Shown here: piece after piece, positions 1,369-12,106 of the stretch
Position numbering within the stretch: position 1 is the stretch's first letter
How the letters are laid out: every line of letters starts with the position of its first letter
IMG/VR virus record: IMGVR_UViG_2744054964_000001
Source: a virus
Lineage: Duplodnaviria; Heunggongvirae; Uroviricota; Caudoviricetes
Direction: 5' to 3' (one strand)
Length of the DNA: 12,106 nucleotides
Made by a program: the position numbers and the translations under genes
Notes under the pieces: model-generated
Database searches by the model: none
What the model was told of the DNA's origin: nothing
What the model saw: only the letters and a program-made list of their open reading frames with translations

Positions 1369-1444
1369 GCCGATATAGCTCAGTTGGTAGAGCAGCGCAT
1401 TCGTAATGCGAAGGTCGTAGGTTCGACTCCTATTATCGGCACCA
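1369..1444 (+). tRNA. thrW: tRNA-Thr (anticodon CGT), 76 nt including encoded CCA
   Basis: GCCGATATAGCTCAGTTGGTAGAGCAGCGCATTCGTAATGCGAAGGTCGTAGGTTCGACTCCTATTATCGGCACCA: acceptor stem GCCGATA/TATCGGC, D-loop AGTTGGTAG, anticodon loop TTCGTAA, T-loop GGTTCGACTCC, 3' CCA. Position after proA matches thrW. Confidence 0.9.
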
Positions 1445-3475: not shown

Positions 3476-3679
3476 ATGGCTAATTACAATTCATTAATTC
3501 GTCTCTCTGAAGTTCAAAGGCGAACTGGTTATAGCAAAGCATGGATTTATCGTCTTATTAGTCAGGGGAGGTTCCCTAAACAGGTAAAAATTGGAAGTCG
3601 GGCAATTGCTTTTGTTGAGTCTGAAATAGATGAATGGATTGAGAAGTGTATATTAGAATCTAGAGACGAGGTGGCCTGA
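3476..3679 (+). CDS. alpA: AlpA/Vis-family phage transcriptional regulator (excisionase-like DNA-binding protein)
   Basis: 67-aa ORF; sequence LSEVQRRTGYSKAWIYRLISQGRFPKQVKIGSRAIAFVESEIDEWI matches the AlpA family helix-turn-helix pattern; stop overlaps the start of the next ORF (TGATG). Confidence 0.85.
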   Translation: MANYNSLIRLSEVQRRTGYSKAWIYRLISQGRFPKQVKIGSRAIAFVESEIDEWIEKCILESRDEVA

Positions 3680-5187: not shown

Positions 5188-5418
5188 TCTGCAACCTTAC
5201 AAAACCTGATATTGATACCGCAGCGCCTGGAGTTCCGTTACCAGTACGCGAGGCGCTTACCCTCAACAAAAAGATGGTGAGCCGTGCACAGGGAAAACTC
5301 TTAAAGGGTTACGGTTTTATCTGGTATGACCACCTAGCAGAGAAAAGCTGTTATAGTCCAAGCGTTGCTGCAAAATCAGCAACCGGGCGTGAGAACCCGA
5401 ACACACTCAGGGCGACAC

Positions 5419-5441
5419 AGACGCCGAAAGCGTCTTTTTTT
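5419..5441 (+). terminator. Rho-independent terminator (AGACGC-CGAAA-GCGTCT followed by T7)
   Basis: 6-bp GC-rich stem, 5-nt loop, run of seven T; preceded by a second hairpin GTTGCTG-CAAAAT-CAGCAAC at 5364-5383. Confidence 0.5.
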
Positions 5442-5507
5442 GTGTCCATTCACTACGCACATCAAATCAGCGGACTTACCCGTACTGTATCAATGGTGGC
5501 GTTAGTG

Positions 5508-5622
5508 GGGCTACGTTCGCGTAGGCCGGTTTCCTTTGTGTCCGGTATTCTCACCCCCGCTGACGTCACCGCCAATTCAGAGCGTGAGAACTCAGGCGGT
5601 GACTCCTTAAACACAAAGGAGG
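5508..5622 (+). promoter_or_regulatory. Candidate C4/CI-type antisense RNA or RBS-masking leader upstream of the icd-like gene
   Basis: Hairpin CTACG-TTCG-CGTAG (5511-5524); CCGG-TTTCCTTTGTGT-CCGG stem-loop (5526-5545) whose loop TCCTTTGTGT (5532-5541) is the exact reverse complement of ACACAAAGGA (5611-5620), which overlaps the SD AAGGAGG (5616-5622) of the icd-like ORF; second copy TTTGTGTCC at 5439-5447. Confidence 0.35.
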
Positions 5623-6565: not shown

Positions 6566-7188
6566 GCAACGCACCGACCATTAAATCGGGAAATGCCGAC
6601 TTATTACACGCCGAAGCCACACCGCACGGCGTCAATATCATGACCCGCAATGATGCCGGGGGATATGAGCAGGTTGCTCTTATCAGCTACGAGAGCGCCG
6701 TGAACGGCCTTGACGCCGGAGAGTACGACGATAAGCCAGATATCGGATACGCCATTCATTTTGCCGTTGCTGATGGCGGGGCGCGTGGCTGGTTCGACTT
6801 CACCGCGCAGCATAACGTCACTATGTGGCGCTGGCTGATTGCTGCGACGTTCATTTCTGAGATGAAGCGCGAAAACGGCACAACCACGGTAACTGAGTCT
6901 GACGGCACTTCATCGCAGGTGGCGATTTACTCCAATGGCACGGCGGGGATTGTGGTTTACCCGTTCGCGGAACGTCTGGCGATGGCTAACAACATGGAGG
7001 GCGCAATGGTTGAGCGCTACGGCATTGAGCAGGGAACAGCGAACGCCATTGTTTTTTATCAGGCCATGATCGACACGGAGCGCGGCGAGTTGACCCCGTT
7101 CGGGCGTGAAACGCTTGCTGAACTTCACAACAGCTTTATAGCTGAACTGGATGAAAACGGCTGGCCTGAAATGCCGCTGGCGCACTGA
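6562..7188 (+). CDS. Hypothetical protein (208 aa)
   Basis: SD GCGGAGGG upstream; ATGA overlap with the upstream ORF; coding-like composition; no family recognised. Confidence 0.65.
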   Translation: MSNAPTIKSGNADLLHAEATPHGVNIMTRNDAGGYEQVALISYESAVNGLDAGEYDDKPDIGYAIHFAVADGGARGWFDFTAQHNVTMWRWLIAATFISEMKRENGTTTVTESDGTSSQVAIYSNGTAGIVVYPFAERLAMANNMEGAMVERYGIEQGTANAIVFYQAMIDTERGELTPFGRETLAELHNSFIAELDENGWPEMPLAH

Positions 7189-7197
7189 GGGGGCGAC

Positions 7198-7539
7198 ATG
7201 ATTACTAAAAATTTCCGACTTAATGCGCTGGCGAATAAGTATGCGTCGGCACTGTATAACCACATTACGGCTATCAATGGTGGCAATTACTTCATGGTTG
7301 ACGCGGCAGGCCAGCAAATCCGTGTGGAGATCGTCAATGGAGTAAAAGGCGTTCGCAGCCTGATCGATAGCTACACACTGGCAGCCATGAAAGTGTCCTA
7401 CCCGCAGTGGGAAACCGTGGGGGTCGAGCTTCTTGAGCGTTGCGTCACTAAGGACGGATTGACTGACGTCGGGCGCGAGATATGGCAAAGCATGGTTAAA
7501 GACATGGGCGCGACAGTGGCAGGAGGCAATCATGCGTAA
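7198..7539 (+). CDS. Hypothetical protein (113 aa)
   Basis: SD GAGGGGG upstream; stop overlaps the primase start (ATGCGTAA). Confidence 0.6.
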   Translation: MITKNFRLNALANKYASALYNHITAINGGNYFMVDAAGQQIRVEIVNGVKGVRSLIDSYTLAAMKVSYPQWETVGVELLERCVTKDGLTDVGREIWQSMVKDMGATVAGGNHA

Positions 7540-9973
7540 TATCGACCTTATCCGCGAAGTGACCAGTGCCGCCGCCGGGCGCTGGCCTTATGTGCTGGCT
7601 GGATTGTCTATCGACGTGCCTGATTCATCGCGCCGCCATTCTCCATGCCCTGCATGTGGTGGAAAAGACCGTTTCAGATTCGACGACAACGGGCGCGGTA
7701 GCTTTATCTGCAACCAGTGTGGCGCTGGTGACGGGCTGGATTTAATCAAGCGGGTTAACAACTGCGACACTACGGAGGCGGCACAGCTTGCCGCTGACGT
7801 GCTGGGTATTGATTACCGGGCAGCGCAAACCGACCCGGTGGCAGCGAGCCATAGAAGAGAGCAACTGGAAGCTGACCGCCAGCAGCGTGAGCAGGAGCGC
7901 CAGAAACAGGCAGCAGAGGATGCAGAGCAGCGAAGGGCTACGTTTGCCCGTCTGTATGCCGGAATGCGCCAGAGTGCCACACAGGGCGAATCTGATTACC
8001 TGCAATCAAAAGGGCTGACCGGGTTTAAATATCCGGTAATGCCGGATGGTTCGTTATTGCTGGAGCTGGTGGACGAATCCGGCGCAGTGGCAGCAGCGCA
8101 AACCATTACACCGCAGGGAGAGAAGCGACTCCTGACAGGTTCAGCAAAGCGCGGGGCATATCACGCCGTAAACGCGCCAGAATCGCCGCAGAGCGTTTTA
8201 ATTGCCGAGGGGCTGGCGACGGCCCTTTCAGTTCACCTGATGCGCCCGGACGCGCTGGCAGTGGCAGCAATTGACGCGGGCAACCTGCTACCCGTTGCCG
8301 AAGTGATGCGCCGGAAACACCCGCAGTCGCAAATTATCATTGCCGCAGATAACGACCACCAGCAGGACGAACAGGCGAACACGGGCAAAGATGCCGCAGA
8401 GAAAGCCGCCTTATCCGTGGCTGGCTGGGTGGCGCTGCCGCCGACAGACTATAAAGCCGACTGGGACGACTACCGCCAGCAAAACGGGCTGGAAGTCGCT
8501 ACGGCTGCGTTTAACGATTCGATGTACCAGATTCAGGGGGAAGCCGTGAAACCACAACTACAGGCCATTGCGGGCGGTAAATCCCGCCGTAAAGCCGAAG
8601 TCGGAGATATTGCACAAATGGCAGCCAGCCAGAAAGCGCGGTTGCTTTCATCTCGATGGGATATGTTGGCGGTTAACCCTGATAGTGGCACTGTTTACTG
8701 TTACGAATCTGGCGTATGGGAGAAGCTACCAGACAGTGAATTAGAAAGGGTTATGGTGGCAATTTTCGACGAGCACGAAGCCCACTACACCGAAAAGGGG
8801 ATTAAATCGGTTGTCGCAACCATGAAGCTGCAAATACCGGTAATTGGTGAGCGGAGCGGGGATCTGATTGGTTTTGATAACGGCGTTTATGACCTCGCCA
8901 CGCAGACGTTTTCCGCCCATTCGCCGGGTAACTGGCTGATGAACCACAATGGGATCACCTACACCCCGCCAGCGCCGGGGGAAAATATTACCACCAGCGC
9001 CCCCAATTTTACCCGTTGGCTGAATCATGCAACGGCTGGCGACCATCATAAGGCCGAGCGTATCAAAGCAGCCTTGTTTATGGTGCTGGCGAAGCGTCAC
9101 GACTGGCAGCTATTCATTGAGATAACTGGCGAGGGCGGCAGTGGGAAATCCGTATTCAGCAGCATAGCAACCACGCTGGCAGGTGAACACAACACCGCCA
9201 GCGGTAGCATGATGACGCTGGACACCGCACGGGGACGAGCGCAGTTCGTAGGAAAAAGCCTGATTATTATGCCTGACCAGACCCGCTATGTTGGAGAGGG
9301 TGCGGGGATTAAGGCCATTACGGGCGGCGATCCGGTAGAGATTGATGGGAAATATGAAAAGCAGTTCACAACCGTGCTAAATGCCGTTGTTATGGCAACC
9401 AATAACGAGCCGATGACATTCACGGAGCGAAACGGGGGCATTGCCCGCCGCCGCGTGATATTCCCGTTTAATAACCCGGTATCAGACGCAGACAAAGACC
9501 CGGATTTAACCGCAAAAATCAGGCGAGAAATCCCGGTGATTATCCGCCACCTGCTAACCACCTTTGCCGACCAGAACAAAGCAAAGGCACTATTACTAGA
9601 GCAGCGCGATTCGCAGGAGGCGCTAGAGGTTAAACGCGGCACAGATCCGGTTGTCGATATGTGTGCGGCGCTTTTTTTCATGAACGAACCCAAAGGCATG
9701 ATGATGGGCGGAGGTACATGGGCAGGCCAGCCAGAGCCGAGGACATATCTTTATCATCTTTATCTGGCGTTTATGGAGTATCACGGCCTGGGTAAACCGC
9801 TTTCCGTCAATAAGTTTTCACGCGCCATAAAATCAGCAGCAAAAGAGTACCGAGCCAGCTACCTGACGAGAAGCATTAACGGCAGAGCGCAAACCAACGT
9901 TGGCTATAACGAGAAGGCTGAGGAGTTCATGCCACGCGCTTACGGCGTGGAGAGCGGGCAGAGTGATGATTGA
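7532..9973 (+). CDS. P4 alpha-type bifunctional DNA primase / helicase
   Basis: 813 aa; N-terminal Cys4 zinc ribbon (CPACGGKDRF...CNQCGAGDG); Toprim-like acidic motifs (LIAEGLATA, IIAADNDHQQDE); C-terminal P-loop GEGGSGKS (nt 9128-9151) of D5_N/SF3-type helicase; SD AGGAGG upstream. Confidence 0.9.
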   Translation: MRNIDLIREVTSAAAGRWPYVLAGLSIDVPDSSRRHSPCPACGGKDRFRFDDNGRGSFICNQCGAGDGLDLIKRVNNCDTTEAAQLAADVLGIDYRAAQTDPVAASHRREQLEADRQQREQERQKQAAEDAEQRRATFARLYAGMRQSATQGESDYLQSKGLTGFKYPVMPDGSLLLELVDESGAVAAAQTITPQGEKRLLTGSAKRGAYHAVNAPESPQSVLIAEGLATALSVHLMRPDALAVAAIDAGNLLPVAEVMRRKHPQSQIIIAADNDHQQDEQANTGKDAAEKAALSVAGWVALPPTDYKADWDDYRQQNGLEVATAAFNDSMYQIQGEAVKPQLQAIAGGKSRRKAEVGDIAQMAASQKARLLSSRWDMLAVNPDSGTVYCYESGVWEKLPDSELERVMVAIFDEHEAHYTEKGIKSVVATMKLQIPVIGERSGDLIGFDNGVYDLATQTFSAHSPGNWLMNHNGITYTPPAPGENITTSAPNFTRWLNHATAGDHHKAERIKAALFMVLAKRHDWQLFIEITGEGGSGKSVFSSIATTLAGEHNTASGSMMTLDTARGRAQFVGKSLIIMPDQTRYVGEGAGIKAITGGDPVEIDGKYEKQFTTVLNAVVMATNNEPMTFTERNGGIARRRVIFPFNNPVSDADKDPDLTAKIRREIPVIIRHLLTTFADQNKAKALLLEQRDSQEALEVKRGTDPVVDMCAALFFMNEPKGMMMGGGTWAGQPEPRTYLYHLYLAFMEYHGLGKPLSVNKFSRAIKSAAKEYRASYLTRSINGRAQTNVGYNEKAEEFMPRAYGVESGQSDD

Positions 9974-9990
9974 AACTTTTACGGCGGCAC

Positions 9991-10238
9991 TTATCCCTAC
10001 TGCCCTACTAAAAACGAGACGAGGCCAGACGTAGCAAGGCTTTAAACTAGGTAGGGATATATATTTTTATCCCTACTTATCCCTACATATCCCTACCAAA
10101 TAAAACAGGCAGCAAAATGCCGTTGAAGTGATTTAGTAGGGATAAGTAGGGTTATGTAGGGCAACAAAATTGAATGCCTACCAGTCTGAAAGCCTTGCCA
10201 TTCGTGGCCTGAGACAGTTAGTAGGGATTGGTAGGGAT
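9991..10238. repeat. Iteron cluster (about 11 copies of the octamer ATCCCTAC / GTAGGGAT in both orientations) flanking an AT-rich stretch; putative replication origin
   Basis: ATCCCTAC-orientation copies at 9993-10000, 10003-10009 (variant), 10069-10076, 10079-10086, 10089-10096; GTAGGG(A/T)T-orientation copies at 10051-10058, 10137-10144, 10146-10153, 10156-10163, 10221-10228, 10231-10238; ATATATATTTTT at about 10057-10068; immediately downstream of the primase-helicase gene. Confidence 0.55.
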
Positions 10239-10292
10239 ATTACACCCCCAAAAAGATTCTATGGGGGGGGTAGCTTATAACGAAGGTGGGCA

Positions 10293-10574
10293 ATGAATAC
10301 AGAAACCAGCCAGAAAATGACCTATCAGGAGCGTGAAGCATTGAAGGGGTTTACTGACAAACGCGCATTACAGGGCGACACCCAAAGCCTGCAAATGACC
10401 TTGAGGATGATCGCCCACTGGATGAGGCAGCCAGCAGAAATTGGATTTACAGAATATGCAACACACTGGACGGCGGCACAGGCCGGACGTGATGACGGGA
10501 ATCACTCGACCGCAGCAATGGCGGAGCAGTGGCCTTTAAGGGAAGAAATGAAAAGCGCCTGCCGTGAAGAGTAA
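10293..10574 (+). CDS. Hypothetical protein (93 aa)
   Basis: ATG with SD AAGGTGG upstream; followed by an operator-like palindrome and an intrinsic terminator; no family recognised. Confidence 0.5.
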   Translation: MNTETSQKMTYQEREALKGFTDKRALQGDTQSLQMTLRMIAHWMRQPAEIGFTEYATHWTAAQAGRDDGNHSTAAMAEQWPLREEMKSACREE

Positions 10575-10614
10575 TGCGACACCATAAATATAGTTTTTAG
10601 AGCCCATAAAAAAC

Positions 10615-10630
10615 TTGTCAAAACTTGACA
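10615..10630. promoter_or_regulatory. Operator-like inverted repeat TTGTCA-AAAC-TTGACA (second copy of the 5172-5187 motif)
   Basis: Read directly; differs from the 5172-5187 site by one central base; sits just upstream of the terminator that precedes the AT-rich cassette. Confidence 0.35.
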
Positions 10631-10641
10631 CACAGAACGAT

Positions 10642-10672
10642 GCCACCAGCTACTGAGCGGTGGCATTTTTTT
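10642..10672 (+). terminator. Rho-independent terminator (TGCCACC-N11-GGTGGCA followed by T7)
   Basis: 7-bp GC-rich stem, 11-nt loop, then ATTTTTTT; separates the primase/ori module from the downstream cassette. Confidence 0.55.
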
Positions 10673-10689
10673 GTGCTATTTGTTTCATA

Positions 10690-10766
10690 TTTTGCAATTA
10701 CGGTGATAAATATTGCTATTTGTGAAACTATAATAACTGTTGTTTTATACAGTTCTAAGGGGCGTT
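10690..10766 (+). promoter_or_regulatory. AT-rich promoter region for the downstream cassette (TATAAT at 10729-10734; SD TAAGGGG at 10756-10762)
   Basis: Consensus -10 hexamer and AT-rich upstream tract; candidate -35 hexamers (TTGCTA, TTGCAA) lie at non-ideal spacing, so the exact promoter is not resolved. Confidence 0.3.
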
Positions 10767-10940
10767 ATGGCTATTTCAGCAAAGCCGGTATTGATAAGTG
10801 AGAAGCAAATGGAAGCGATAAAGAAAATTCAGGAGGAGCAGCGTAAAAAATCAGAGGTAGGAGTTGCGCCAACGATCCACGAAATTGCTCGGGGATTAAT
10901 GGATAAGGCGCTGGCCTCACTGGCAAGCGAGGGCGCGTAA
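10767..10940 (+). CDS. Small ribbon-helix-helix-like protein (57 aa), putative DNA-binding partner of the downstream metallopeptidase
   Basis: ATG at 10767 with SD TAAGGGG (the track's 10740 start is a TTG); predicted beta-strand PVLIS followed by two helices (EKQMEAIKKIQEE; PTIHEIARGLMDKALASL), typical of CopG/Arc-like proteins; stop overlaps the next start (TAATG). Confidence 0.5.
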   Translation: MAISAKPVLISEKQMEAIKKIQEEQRKKSEVGVAPTIHEIARGLMDKALASLASEGA

Positions 10941-11611
10941 TGGGCGCCATTCACCAGATATATGAGCATGAAATGTTCTATAACTGGATAGGTGATGGTA
11001 AACGATGTGTAGCATTCCACGAAGCGGGACATGCAGTAGCTGCATGGCTTATTCGCTTAGATATACAGGTTATCGCCGTTATGGATGAATACGGTTACGT
11101 TGCTGGCGAACATGTACATGAGGCCAAGTGTTTGGGTGTTGTTAAACACAGCATAATTCACAGCCACGATCTAGGGCGTTTGCGGGATAGTAAATCTGGT
11201 GTAGTTGGGCAGAATGGTAAAGTTATCCCTTTCATACGTTACTATGCGGATGGTATAAAGCGCGATGCAAAAAAGGCCGCTTTTGTATCCCTCGCCGGAC
11301 CAGTAAGCGAAGCCCTTTACGAAAACAACGATATTTTCAACAAAAAGTATTCGCTACCTCATCGCTATGACATGGCTAACGTAAATGACATGCTCGATTT
11401 AATCTGCGCTACAGATAAGCGAATTAACAGGGAGTTAATGCTTTCTAAACTCGTTGAAAAGACCAAAGCCCTCATGTCTCAATACTGGTATGAAGTAGAA
11501 AAAATAGCGCATTTGCTTGAACGGGATAGCATTGTGAATGGTCGAAATGTTAGCTCGTTAATTGGCATCAACGTCATAGACCGGGCAACGCCATTTTTGC
11601 TGGTGGAATAA
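10940..11611 (+). CDS. Standalone HExxH zinc metallopeptidase, FtsH / peptidase M41-like catalytic domain without AAA+ or transmembrane modules
   Basis: 223 aa; motif AFHEAGHAVAAWLI followed by IQVIAVMDEYGYVAG aligns by eye with the FtsH protease-domain segment YHEAGHAIIGRLV...VHKVTIIPRG; downstream SLAGPVSEAL aligns with FtsH TLYGGRLAEE (third zinc ligand region); visibly lower GC than neighbouring genes. Confidence 0.7.
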   Translation: MGAIHQIYEHEMFYNWIGDGKRCVAFHEAGHAVAAWLIRLDIQVIAVMDEYGYVAGEHVHEAKCLGVVKHSIIHSHDLGRLRDSKSGVVGQNGKVIPFIRYYADGIKRDAKKAAFVSLAGPVSEALYENNDIFNKKYSLPHRYDMANVNDMLDLICATDKRINRELMLSKLVEKTKALMSQYWYEVEKIAHLLERDSIVNGRNVSSLIGINVIDRATPFLLVE

Positions 11612-11824
11612 CTCCAGACCAAACTCATTCGATGATTCATTTCTCCACGGGTAAGCTATGCCGGTATACCTAACTCCGCAGTATTACCGGAATCAGCCAG
11701 GCTACAGGCACACAGGAGGCCACGCAACACAATCCGCGCCGGGATAGGAGTTATATAATACCCCTGATGATTTTGACCAACGCCCACCATTCGACGATGA
11801 AACGCCATTCTGGGGGAGATAAAC

Positions 11825-12106
11825 ATGGTAAACGACAGTAAAGCCGAGGATCTGGAAGCAAAAGGGCTGTACCGACGCGCCGCAGCGCGATGGATGGAAG
11901 TCATGCTGTTATGCACCGAGGACGATGATCGGGAATGGATAAAGCGCCGCCGTGAAACGTGTCTGGAGAACGTGAAGCGCCCGCCCGTGAAGGTTGAGGA
12001 CTTTGGCGACCTACATAAAGCTGTTACCGAAACGCAACACCGCATGGGGATAGCGCAACCGAACGGTAACGCCTTCCGGTTAAATGGCGGCAAGAGGCAA
12101 AGGTAG
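11825..12106 (+). CDS. PerC-like small transcriptional regulator (93 aa)
   Basis: SD GGGGAG upstream; N-terminal AEDLEAKGLYRRAAARWMEVM resembles the conserved PerC-family signature common in enterobacterial P4-like islands; TAG stop at the last three bases of the window. Confidence 0.5.
   Translation: MVNDSKAEDLEAKGLYRRAAARWMEVMLLCTEDDDREWIKRRRETCLENVKRPPVKVEDFGDLHKAVTETQHRMGIAQPNGNAFRLNGGKRQR

Follow-up and report, generated by a model that had tools for sequence, protein, structure and literature searches.

EcCIMP1 is a phage-inducible chromosomal island (PICI) of Escherichia coli MP1 that has been experimentally induced and transferred by the P22-like phage Kapi1, with AlpA driving the induction and TCCTATTATC given as its attachment (att) core (Pick et al., ISME J 2025, PMC11773190). 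The present analysis concerns a related island carried on a DNA stretch of 12,106 nucleotides (IMG/VR virus record IMGVR_UViG_2744054964_000001), the whole of which is referred to as the window. Its main subject is the gene for a 223-amino acid stand-alone metallopeptidase of the M41/FtsH type, which lies downstream of the primase gene of the island.

P4-like satellites and PICIs are documented as carriers of anti-phage systems. The hotspots for such systems are described (Rousset et al. 2022, PMC9122126; Tai systems, PMC11364771) as variable slots between backbone genes with cargo of low guanine-plus-cytosine (GC) content and exchange in the flanks. The slot in the window is of this kind, and in a sister element RosmerTA adjoins the module to which the protease belongs. 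It differs in that its occupant is no recognised defence gene and in that most relatives hold helper-type virion genes in the same slot.

The FtsH/M41 domain is represented in the Protein Data Bank (PDB) by entries 2di4, 2ce7 and 8xkv. In comparison, the window protein has no transmembrane helices and no AAA+ unfoldase, is ~15% identical and carries a His/Cys-rich insertion of ~40 residues after the catalytic helix. From the stand-alone M41-like proteins at large (~2,200 representatives), its clade is set apart by this extra insertion and by satellite-specific neighbours; the Vibrio cholerae orphan in PDB 5iqj is possibly a solved example of such a stand-alone protein. The ImmR/ImmA system of ICEBs1 and the ImmA/IrrE pairs likewise place a small putative DNA-binding gene beside an HExxH metalloprotease on a mobile element. 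The window protease differs from these in being of the M41 rather than the M78/COG2856 type, its partner is not an XRE protein with a helix-turn-helix (HTH) domain, and the pair is not an obligate one. Lit, a protease encoded by the e14 prophage, brings about abortive infection through the cleavage of EF-Tu. It is also a stand-alone HExxH zinc protease on a mobile element and the nearest model of how a defence role could work, although no sequence or fold relationship to the window protease was detected.

Taken jointly, the observations make it highly probable that the window holds an EcCIMP1-like PICI at thrW in which the body of the ejection operon was swapped for an M41 gene with its HExxH motif and putative aspartate ligand intact. 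In this picture, all islands of the family have, behind the primase, a terminator, an AT-rich control region and a small open reading frame at the head of an operon. The crossover would lie in a small open reading frame (ORF), the donor would be a mobile module, and a lipoprotein gene would have been lost later. The features concerned are the following:

10538..10915, plus strand: conserved PICI backbone, with the end of orf93, the terminator, the TATAAT spacer and the small ORF up to about codon 49
10767..10940, plus strand: 57-amino acid small ORF, a backbone gene with a chimeric 3′ end
10912..11678, plus strand: imported segment, running from the 3′ tail of the small ORF through the protease gene to 67 nucleotides beyond it
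10940..11611, plus strand: 223-amino acid stand-alone zinc metallopeptidase of the M41/FtsH fold, with H27, E28, H31, E124 and D144
11675..11726, plus strand: 52-nucleotide scar, 100% identical to positions 12019-12070 of locus L065, beyond a gene for a 352-amino acid lipoprotein
11713..11821, plus strand: 3′ remnant of a gene for a single-stranded DNA-binding protein (SSB), encoding ...DDFDQRPPFDDETPF, 93.8% identical to positions 6855-6965 of locus L076 (the end of an intact SSB ORF)

The boundary between backbone and imported DNA is apparent from the distribution of the two parts. Comparison of 10600-11650 by megablast with 5,426 complete E. coli genomes recovered the entire stretch in 26 of them, from diverse hosts and sources. 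Approximately 500 more genomes match positions 1-316/322 of the query only, corresponding to window positions 10600-10921, such that the protease is present in 26 of ~526 E. coli genomes having the upstream backbone. In pairwise BLAST, the segment 10538-10915 has 93-97% nucleotide identity to EcCIMP1 (L012) and to loci L003-5 and L061-64. All nine of the protease-less loci inspected, EcCIMP1 included, have the terminator, the spacer and a small ORF of 53-57 amino acids, followed by P22-like ejection genes. This block consists of DUF2824, gp7-like, ‘phage DNA ejection protein’ (gp20-like) and lytic-transglycosylase (gp16-like) genes; behind it lies variable cargo (abortive infection, ImmA/IrrE and other genes) and then perC. 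The leader ORF of the protease-less loci occurs in two subtypes, distinguished by the C-terminal tail.

On the other side of the boundary, 10860-11676/8 matches L065 at 95.6% identity and both L002 and L009 at 89%. The crossover is placed at ~10912-10916, at the small-ORF codons for K-A-L-A, and exact identity to L065 begins at ~10912. The last ~8 codons of the small ORF, including the Shine–Dalgarno sequence for the protease gene, came with the protease. The alignments show that the protease arrived through homologous recombination within the conserved 3′ half of the small ORF. An earlier note on this DNA had described a terminator-insulated two-gene cassette as the acquired unit. This description fails, as the terminator, the TATAAT element and ~49 codons of the small ORF belong to the backbone and the import starts only at ~10912. 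Its suggestion of acquired cargo is borne out for the protease, which is variable in this distribution and distinct in composition.

Downstream of the protease, the 52-nucleotide scar matches sequence beyond the lipoprotein gene of L065, and the lipoprotein gene has therefore been deleted in the lineage of the window. The SSB remnant represents the last ~100 nucleotides of the gene, in which the acidic C-terminal tail is still legible. Between the protease and perC, the scars at 11675-11821 thus bear witness to no fewer than two events of deletion or recombination.

The start codon of the protease gene overlaps the stop codon of the small ORF (TAATG), and a GAGGG Shine–Dalgarno sequence lies inside the final small-ORF codons. 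The translationally coupled layout described in the earlier note is thus confirmed. The HEAGHA motif occupies residues 27-32, within a predicted helix at residues 4-37. The earlier note had allowed that HExxH might not be conserved among relatives, and the motif proved invariant in 13 close and 30 distant ones. H27, E28, H31, E124 (in LAGPVSE) and D144 do not vary in homologues as distant as 25% identity. Their positions are taken to be colinear with the catalytic motif of FtsH, its GG..AE segment and its third-ligand aspartate (D495), as a correspondence of motifs and not of a direct alignment or of coordinates.

The match to Pfam M41 (PF01434) reaches 21.3 bits against a gathering threshold of 29.9, with residues 21-40 alone aligned, and is below the cut-off; the relatives P0029, P0083, P0106, P0120 and P0221 exceed this threshold. 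A profile of 13 homologues retrieves FtsH from the PDB at E = 3e-5, with the catalytic helix and the C-terminal helices aligned as two colinear stretches, and the AlphaFold2 (AF2) model has a predicted template modelling score of 0.72; the protein was found to have the M41 fold. No AAA+ module or membrane segment was found in it by Pfam, NCBIfam or the model, the domain filling all 223 amino acids, and the FtsH model TIGR01241 aligns with residues 20-43 only (15 bits against a cut-off of 600). The earlier description of a HEAGHA protease lacking ATPase and membrane domains therefore stands. The evidence supports the assignment of the protein as a free-standing M41/FtsH-type protease domain, as opposed to FtsH, and catalytic activity as a soluble M41-fold peptidase is plausible.

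Both ORFs are real genes, because they are under purifying selection. The ratio of nonsynonymous to synonymous substitution rates (dN/dS) is 0.15-0.28 for the pair; between families it amounts to 0.16-0.28 for the protease and 0.15-0.18 for the small ORF. The clade-specific insertion in the protease, at approximately residues 49-100 after the catalytic helix, is rich in conserved H58, H60, C64, H70, H74 and H76. It is poorly modelled, with a predicted local distance difference test score below 50 for residues 49-75. This His/Cys-rich insertion might provide a further metal site or act as a regulatory lid.

The wider family is large. An exhaustive search (E<=1e-3) found that ~2,200 cluster representatives fit the family profile; most of the best 150 have lengths of 150-250 amino acids, and HEAGH is kept in a sample of 30 distant matches. 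The clade of the window protease is narrow, with 29 clusters, all from Enterobacterales, and RefSeq names some of its members ‘peptidase M41 family protein’. No characterised member was found among the stand-alone M41-like proteins. The literature search yielded no paper on free-standing M41/FtsH-like proteases in satellites or defence, the lone ‘ftsH-like’ item being the extracellular domain of IetA. The protease has no match in PADLOC 2.0. No informative match emerged when the two proteins and orf93 were compared with PADLOC, PHROGs and NCBIfam, and tblastn of both proteins against 50,697 phage records returned no matches. The neighbours of the wider family were surveyed in 48 genome loci, from which 15 with stand-alone genes were chosen and 44 adjacent ORFs were scanned with Pfam; ORF calling was noisy in metagenome-assembled genomes of high GC content. 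No Pfam family recurred among these 44 ORFs. One locus lies in a prophage beside an integrase gene (by Pfam) and one beside an ORF judged excisionase-like by eye, the rest being ordinary chromosomal loci.

The small ORF has a Shine–Dalgarno sequence of its own, AAGGGG, at 10758-10763. The AF2 monomer of its 57-amino acid product has an extended N-terminus (residues 1-11, KPVLIS) and helices at 12-28 and 37-56. It had been described as a protein of the ribbon-helix-helix (RHH) type. The ORF is genuine and its secondary structure is compatible with that fold, but no known RHH family is matched by it in sequence, profile or structure, nor is any HTH family. The RHH strand forms only in a dimer, and the model is of a monomer; an RHH fold is possible. 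In PADLOC 2.0 the protein has only a chance-level match to Cas11a (E = 0.016). Most simply, the small ORF would be a regulator of the backbone or a leader of the operon, rather than a substrate or an antidote.

The host element occupies most of the window. Domain assignments were made with a Pfam scan and from the RefSeq annotation of the matching element in L001, from which the attL window coordinates were also derived through an offset of 1194. In order, the features are:

1-1254: proA, at the left end of the window
1369-1444: tRNA-Thr(CGT) gene thrW, leading into the mobile element
1428..1437, plus strand: attL core repeat TCCTATTATC, at the 3′ end of thrW and the left end of the 12.4-kb PICI
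1610-2824: P4-type integrase
3476-3679: AlpA-like regulator
between the AlpA-like regulator and the primase: an AntA/AntB-family gene, followed by DUF4222 and Icd-like genes
7532-9973: 813-amino acid P4-family primase with Zn-ribbon, Toprim, D5_N and DUF5906 domains
10293-10574: orf93, downstream of the primase
11825..12106, plus strand: gene for a PerC-family regulator (Pfam PF06069, E = 1.5e-29), belonging to the backbone and forming the right edge of the variable slot

A complete copy of the element is present in strain PC6 (L001; NZ_CP080253), with 99.5% identity across the small-ORF and protease region. There it is bracketed by direct repeats of TCCTATTATC at 2622-2631 and 15044-15053, 12.4 kb apart, where 0.05 chance matches are expected. 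EcCIMP1 has the same att core, likewise occupies thrW between proA and yagU, and agrees in gene order. Pairwise BLAST against EcCIMP1 gives 92-97% identity for the stretch from int to antA and 93.6% for perC. The annotation of L001 has a core of int, alpA and primase genes, a length within 10-20 kb, att repeats and an absence of structural and lysis genes, in agreement with a PICI. The identity of 92-97% between int and antA suggests that excision and transfer of the window island would depend on a helper.

The likeness to EcCIMP1 extends to the order int, alpA, antA/B, DUF4222, icd, primase, small ORF, ..., perC, 61-amino acid ORF and pRiA4b-ORF3, to the common integration site and att core, and to the shared parts, which are 92-97% identical. 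EcCIMP1 differs in its length (20 kb versus 12.4 kb) and in its TOPRIM-DUF927 primase, where the window island has a P4-family D5_N/DUF5906 primase and the extra orf93. It also has the DUF2824/gp7/gp20/gp16-like ejection-protein block and alpA_1, in place of which the window island has the M41 protease. Comparison with L012, L003 and L076 reveals that the replication module at 7532-10574 is a mosaic, with the D5_N/DUF5906 primase and orf93 here and the TOPRIM-DUF927 primase in EcCIMP1. The ~340 N-terminal codons of the primase remain 73-76% identical across the P4-family and EcCIMP1 types.

The element had earlier been called a P4-like satellite. This is correct as far as certain traits are concerned, namely the P4-family primase, a C4-type antisense RNA with its a1b1 target, and icd. 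In Rfam, a C4 antisense RNA is matched at 5489-5576 (76.9 bits), an a1b1 target at 5351-5403 and isrK at 5364-5440, all just upstream of the Icd-like region. In view of these matches at 5351-5576, the island therefore carries an immunity region of the P1/P4 antisense-RNA type. The P4 core genes sid, psu, delta and epsilon are not in the RefSeq annotation of the full element, for which no dedicated profile search was made. The term EcCIMP1-like PICI suits the host element better than that of a canonical P4-like satellite.

The protease has a native module elsewhere, in which the order is a 183-amino acid protein, a 62-amino acid protein, a small-ORF homologue of 58 amino acids (68% identity), the M41 protease and a 352-amino acid predicted lipoprotein. 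This module is present in at least three other enterobacterial elements of the PICI type. It occurs right after the integrase gene in a PICI-like element adjacent to yicC (O45:H2, Salmonella and enteropathogenic E. coli E2348/69), after perC in an island adjacent to a tRNA-Ile gene, and also in several IMG/VR contigs. At identities as low as 46%, the 183- and 62-amino acid genes still accompany the protease. The small-ORF homologue is not kept in this way: it is absent beside the protease in L007, L008, L069, L072 and L074, where a 55-amino acid ORF is a homologue of the 62-amino acid protein. In L070 a Neck1-like gene, to which the small ORF is coupled, comes between it and the protease. The Dickeya locus L006 has an intact protease and a small ORF reduced to a ‘VKPV’ remnant fused to the protease start. 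No copy of the 183- or 62-amino acid gene was found in the 26 genomes of the window type.

Pfam, PADLOC, PHROGs and PDB sequence searches of the 183-, 62- and 352-amino acid module proteins gave no matches. The 183-amino acid protein (L002 5133-5681; P0224-P0264) forms 41 clusters, from Enterobacterales only, with a family size near that of the protease. Its NCBI name, ‘XRE family transcriptional regulator’, was rejected, as no HTH or other Pfam domain was found, and was not used as support for an ImmR-like role.

The surroundings of the module vary. In L009 8137-9995, and also in L002 and L066, RosmerTA lies directly downstream of the module (RmrA, E = 2e-125; RmrT, E = 6e-15), between the integrase gene and alpA of the yicC element, and this region has the look of a cargo hotspot. 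Other satellites have the module just upstream of DUF2280 or DUF5681 genes. In the IMG/VR loci L067-L072, a PICI-like integrase, a primase and the protease module are directly followed by late genes like those of the myovirus SEN34 (Brunovirus). The major capsid protein of L067 is 99.7% identical to that of SEN34, and the capsid gene is cut at an identical point in L068 and L072 (…LKWNMDTDEQVYIGD). No large terminase or portal gene was found inside the 7-kb flank of L067-L072, which may be a satellite inserted in a prophage or a satellite with captured helper late genes.

A second M41-like clade (L075, L076 6965-7606 and L077 6953-7609) is found downstream of the primase in related satellites, with 22-28% identity to the window protease. 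The backbone of L076 is that of the window itself (98% identity in the primase C-terminus and 99.8% in orf93). There the order is SSB, the type-2 protease and a 116-amino acid protein with a signal-peptide-like N-terminus, an arrangement shared by 25 complete E. coli genomes. L077 has a member of the 352-amino acid lipoprotein family behind the type-2 protease. That two M41-like clades of such divergence are both found behind the primase in related satellites suggests that the activity itself is selected there.

The control of the operon can be considered from two features upstream of the small ORF:

10639..10672, plus strand: intrinsic-terminator-like hairpin and U7 tract, downstream of orf93
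10682..10734, plus strand: imperfect palindrome (10682-10698 / 10712-10728) and TATAAT (10729-10734), a candidate operator and -10 element

The hairpin itself spans 10639-10667, with a core stem of UGCCACC/GGUGGCA, and the U7 tract lies at 10666-10672. Its folding energy of -26.2 kcal/mol corresponds to z = -7.5, none of 200 shuffles was as stable, and a consensus scan lists the same site; the intrinsic terminator read earlier from the DNA is thus confirmed. The 17-nucleotide palindrome arms, GTTTCATATTTTGCAAT and ATTGCTATTTGTGAAAC, abut a perfect TATAAT. The spacer alignment reveals that the terminator and the TATAAT region are kept in EcCIMP1-type elements, and the palindrome is conserved in EcCIMP1-type islands. 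There is no acceptable -35 hexamer for the TATAAT at 10729-10734, and a sigma-70 consensus scan found no promoters in 10575-10766. The notion of an own TATAAT promoter is therefore upheld for the hexamer and not for a complete sigma-70 promoter. A promoter at this position may be activator-dependent, with the palindrome at 10682-10734 as a candidate operator of an activator- or repressor-controlled promoter. The unit had also been called AT-rich. This holds for the protease gene (43.3% GC) and the spacer 10575-10766 (34.9%), whereas the whole element has 50.5%, the primase 55.4% and perC 55.7%; the 48.3% of the small ORF is not unusual.

The best single reading of the protease is proteolysis directed at phages, in an accessory role, either as interference with the helper or as defence against competitors. 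Its probability is put at about 0.35, and the explanation taken as a whole falls a little short of even odds. This reading is preferred because of position: the slot is that of helper-type virion genes, RosmerTA is a neighbour elsewhere, and DUF2280 or DUF5681 genes lie downstream in others. It is also preferred because the protease is rare and because two divergent M41-like clades recur downstream of the primase. Translation of the protease, coupled to that of the small ORF, would accompany the activity of the post-primase operon and fall within the helper-induced, AlpA-dependent programme of the island. Having no unfoldase, the enzyme would work without ATP and only on exposed or disordered stretches, in a phage or host protein. 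This cleavage would give the island an interference or defence advantage over helper or competing phages. A bolder version remains tentative, with the odds clearly against it: the five-protein module would be an unrecognised satellite system in which an unfoldase-free FtsH-type protease blocks competing phages or reprogrammes the helper, and the window would hold its minimal, effector-only form.

Several points weigh against phage-directed proteolysis. No homology to a characterised defence or interference protein was found in PADLOC, PHROGs, NCBIfam or the phage records. The window protease is without its usual neighbours (the 183- and 62-amino acid proteins and the lipoprotein) and is perhaps crippled. 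Isolated FtsH protease domains are poor proteases without their ATPase. A promoter is not established, given the absence of a sigma-70 match in 10575-10766. The distant relatives are without a conserved neighbourhood and many of them are chromosomal, and a phage-related role may therefore not be general.

Of the other explanations, the one that survives best is that the protease is stranded, a leftover of the five-gene module which is intact only because the recombination was recent. This is considered unlikely. The 183- and 62-amino acid genes are absent and the lipoprotein gene is deleted, deletion scars and the SSB remnant flank the protease, and a variant cluster with an altered end exists (P0022). 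There is also little divergence from the donor type, with a synonymous rate (dS) of 0.065 versus L065. A mere leftover is difficult to reconcile, however, with an intact ORF and all catalytic residues in 26 genomes of diverse hosts and sources, or with a dN/dS of 0.18 versus L065 and the preservation of the coupling and the Shine–Dalgarno sequence.

The remaining explanations are each given a small chance. The protease could manipulate the helper by cleaving its repressor or a lysis-lysogeny regulator, substituting for the action of FtsH on proteins of the CII/CIII type. The FtsH-type active site is in keeping with such a role, and EcCIMP1-type islands affect the excision and replication of the helper and carry an AntA/AntB antirepressor-family gene. 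With the protease in 26 of ~526 islands, it is nevertheless too rare to be a core mechanism of helper induction, and the proposal is improbable.

The protease could alternatively process ejection, neck or capsid proteins of the helper within a module for virion or packaging hijacking, which is equally hard to favour. It occupies the slot otherwise filled by ejection-protein genes, and in other satellites the module is just upstream of DUF2280/DUF5681 genes, which are often annotated as small terminase subunits. SEN34-like head and tail genes also border the module, which in L070 has a Neck1-like gene inside it. Set against this, we know of no phage maturation protease with an M41 fold, there is no homologue among the 50,697 phage records, and the window island is without any structural genes.

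The analogies with ImmR/ImmA and with toxin-antitoxin pairs, both raised in the earlier note, need an obligate pair. They are disfavoured because the small ORF and the protease each occur without the other. In the first, the small protein would repress the operon or the island until a signal triggers its cleavage by the protease. The two genes are adjacent and translationally coupled, the adjacency is repeated in the native module, the palindrome beside the -10 element could be an operator, and the β-α-α pattern of the small protein is compatible. The small ORF is nonetheless without the protease in ~500 genomes, and the protease is without the small ORF in L006-8, L069, L072 and L074, while in L070 the small ORF is coupled to the Neck1-like gene. 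In addition, the protease has the M41 fold rather than that of M78/COG2856, with no PF06114 match at E<=1, the small ORF fits no HTH or RHH family, and induction of EcCIMP1 proceeds via AlpA. Such a switch has a slim chance of being correct.

In the second, a protease toxin restrained by the small protein would be freed on phage infection to kill or arrest the cell, in the manner of abortive infection. The coupled layout with the small gene upstream, a position as mobile cargo beside RosmerTA in another element, and the precedent of Lit as a prophage HExxH protease are consistent with this. The non-obligate pairing speaks against an antitoxin, and Dickeya keeps an intact protease with a small-ORF remnant only. 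The protease has no PADLOC match, and the junction falls inside the small ORF, whose N-terminal two-thirds come from protease-less elements; this pair, too, is improbable.

Two further candidates were rejected. A membrane protease of the M50 type is contradicted by the M41 fold, the weak Pfam matches being confined to the HExxH helix. A dominant-negative subunit co-assembling with host FtsH is at odds with ~15% identity, strictly conserved catalytic residues and a family spread over many phyla.

What is new in this locus is rated as a known protease fold in a stand-alone, satellite-borne form. Stand-alone FtsH-type domains are widespread. Here, one M41 clade is tied to the accessory or hijack region of enterobacterial satellites and is exchanged by recombination in a conserved leader ORF. 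EcCIMP1 and Kapi1, an E. coli PICI with a known helper, offer an experimentally tractable entry point. If the protease is not an effector against phages or of helper interference, it would be an ordinary orphan cargo gene; if it is, it would represent a new class of protease in the conflict between satellites and phages. For the islands themselves, the locus indicates that the contents of the post-primase operon are swapped with a small conserved ORF as the recombination anchor.

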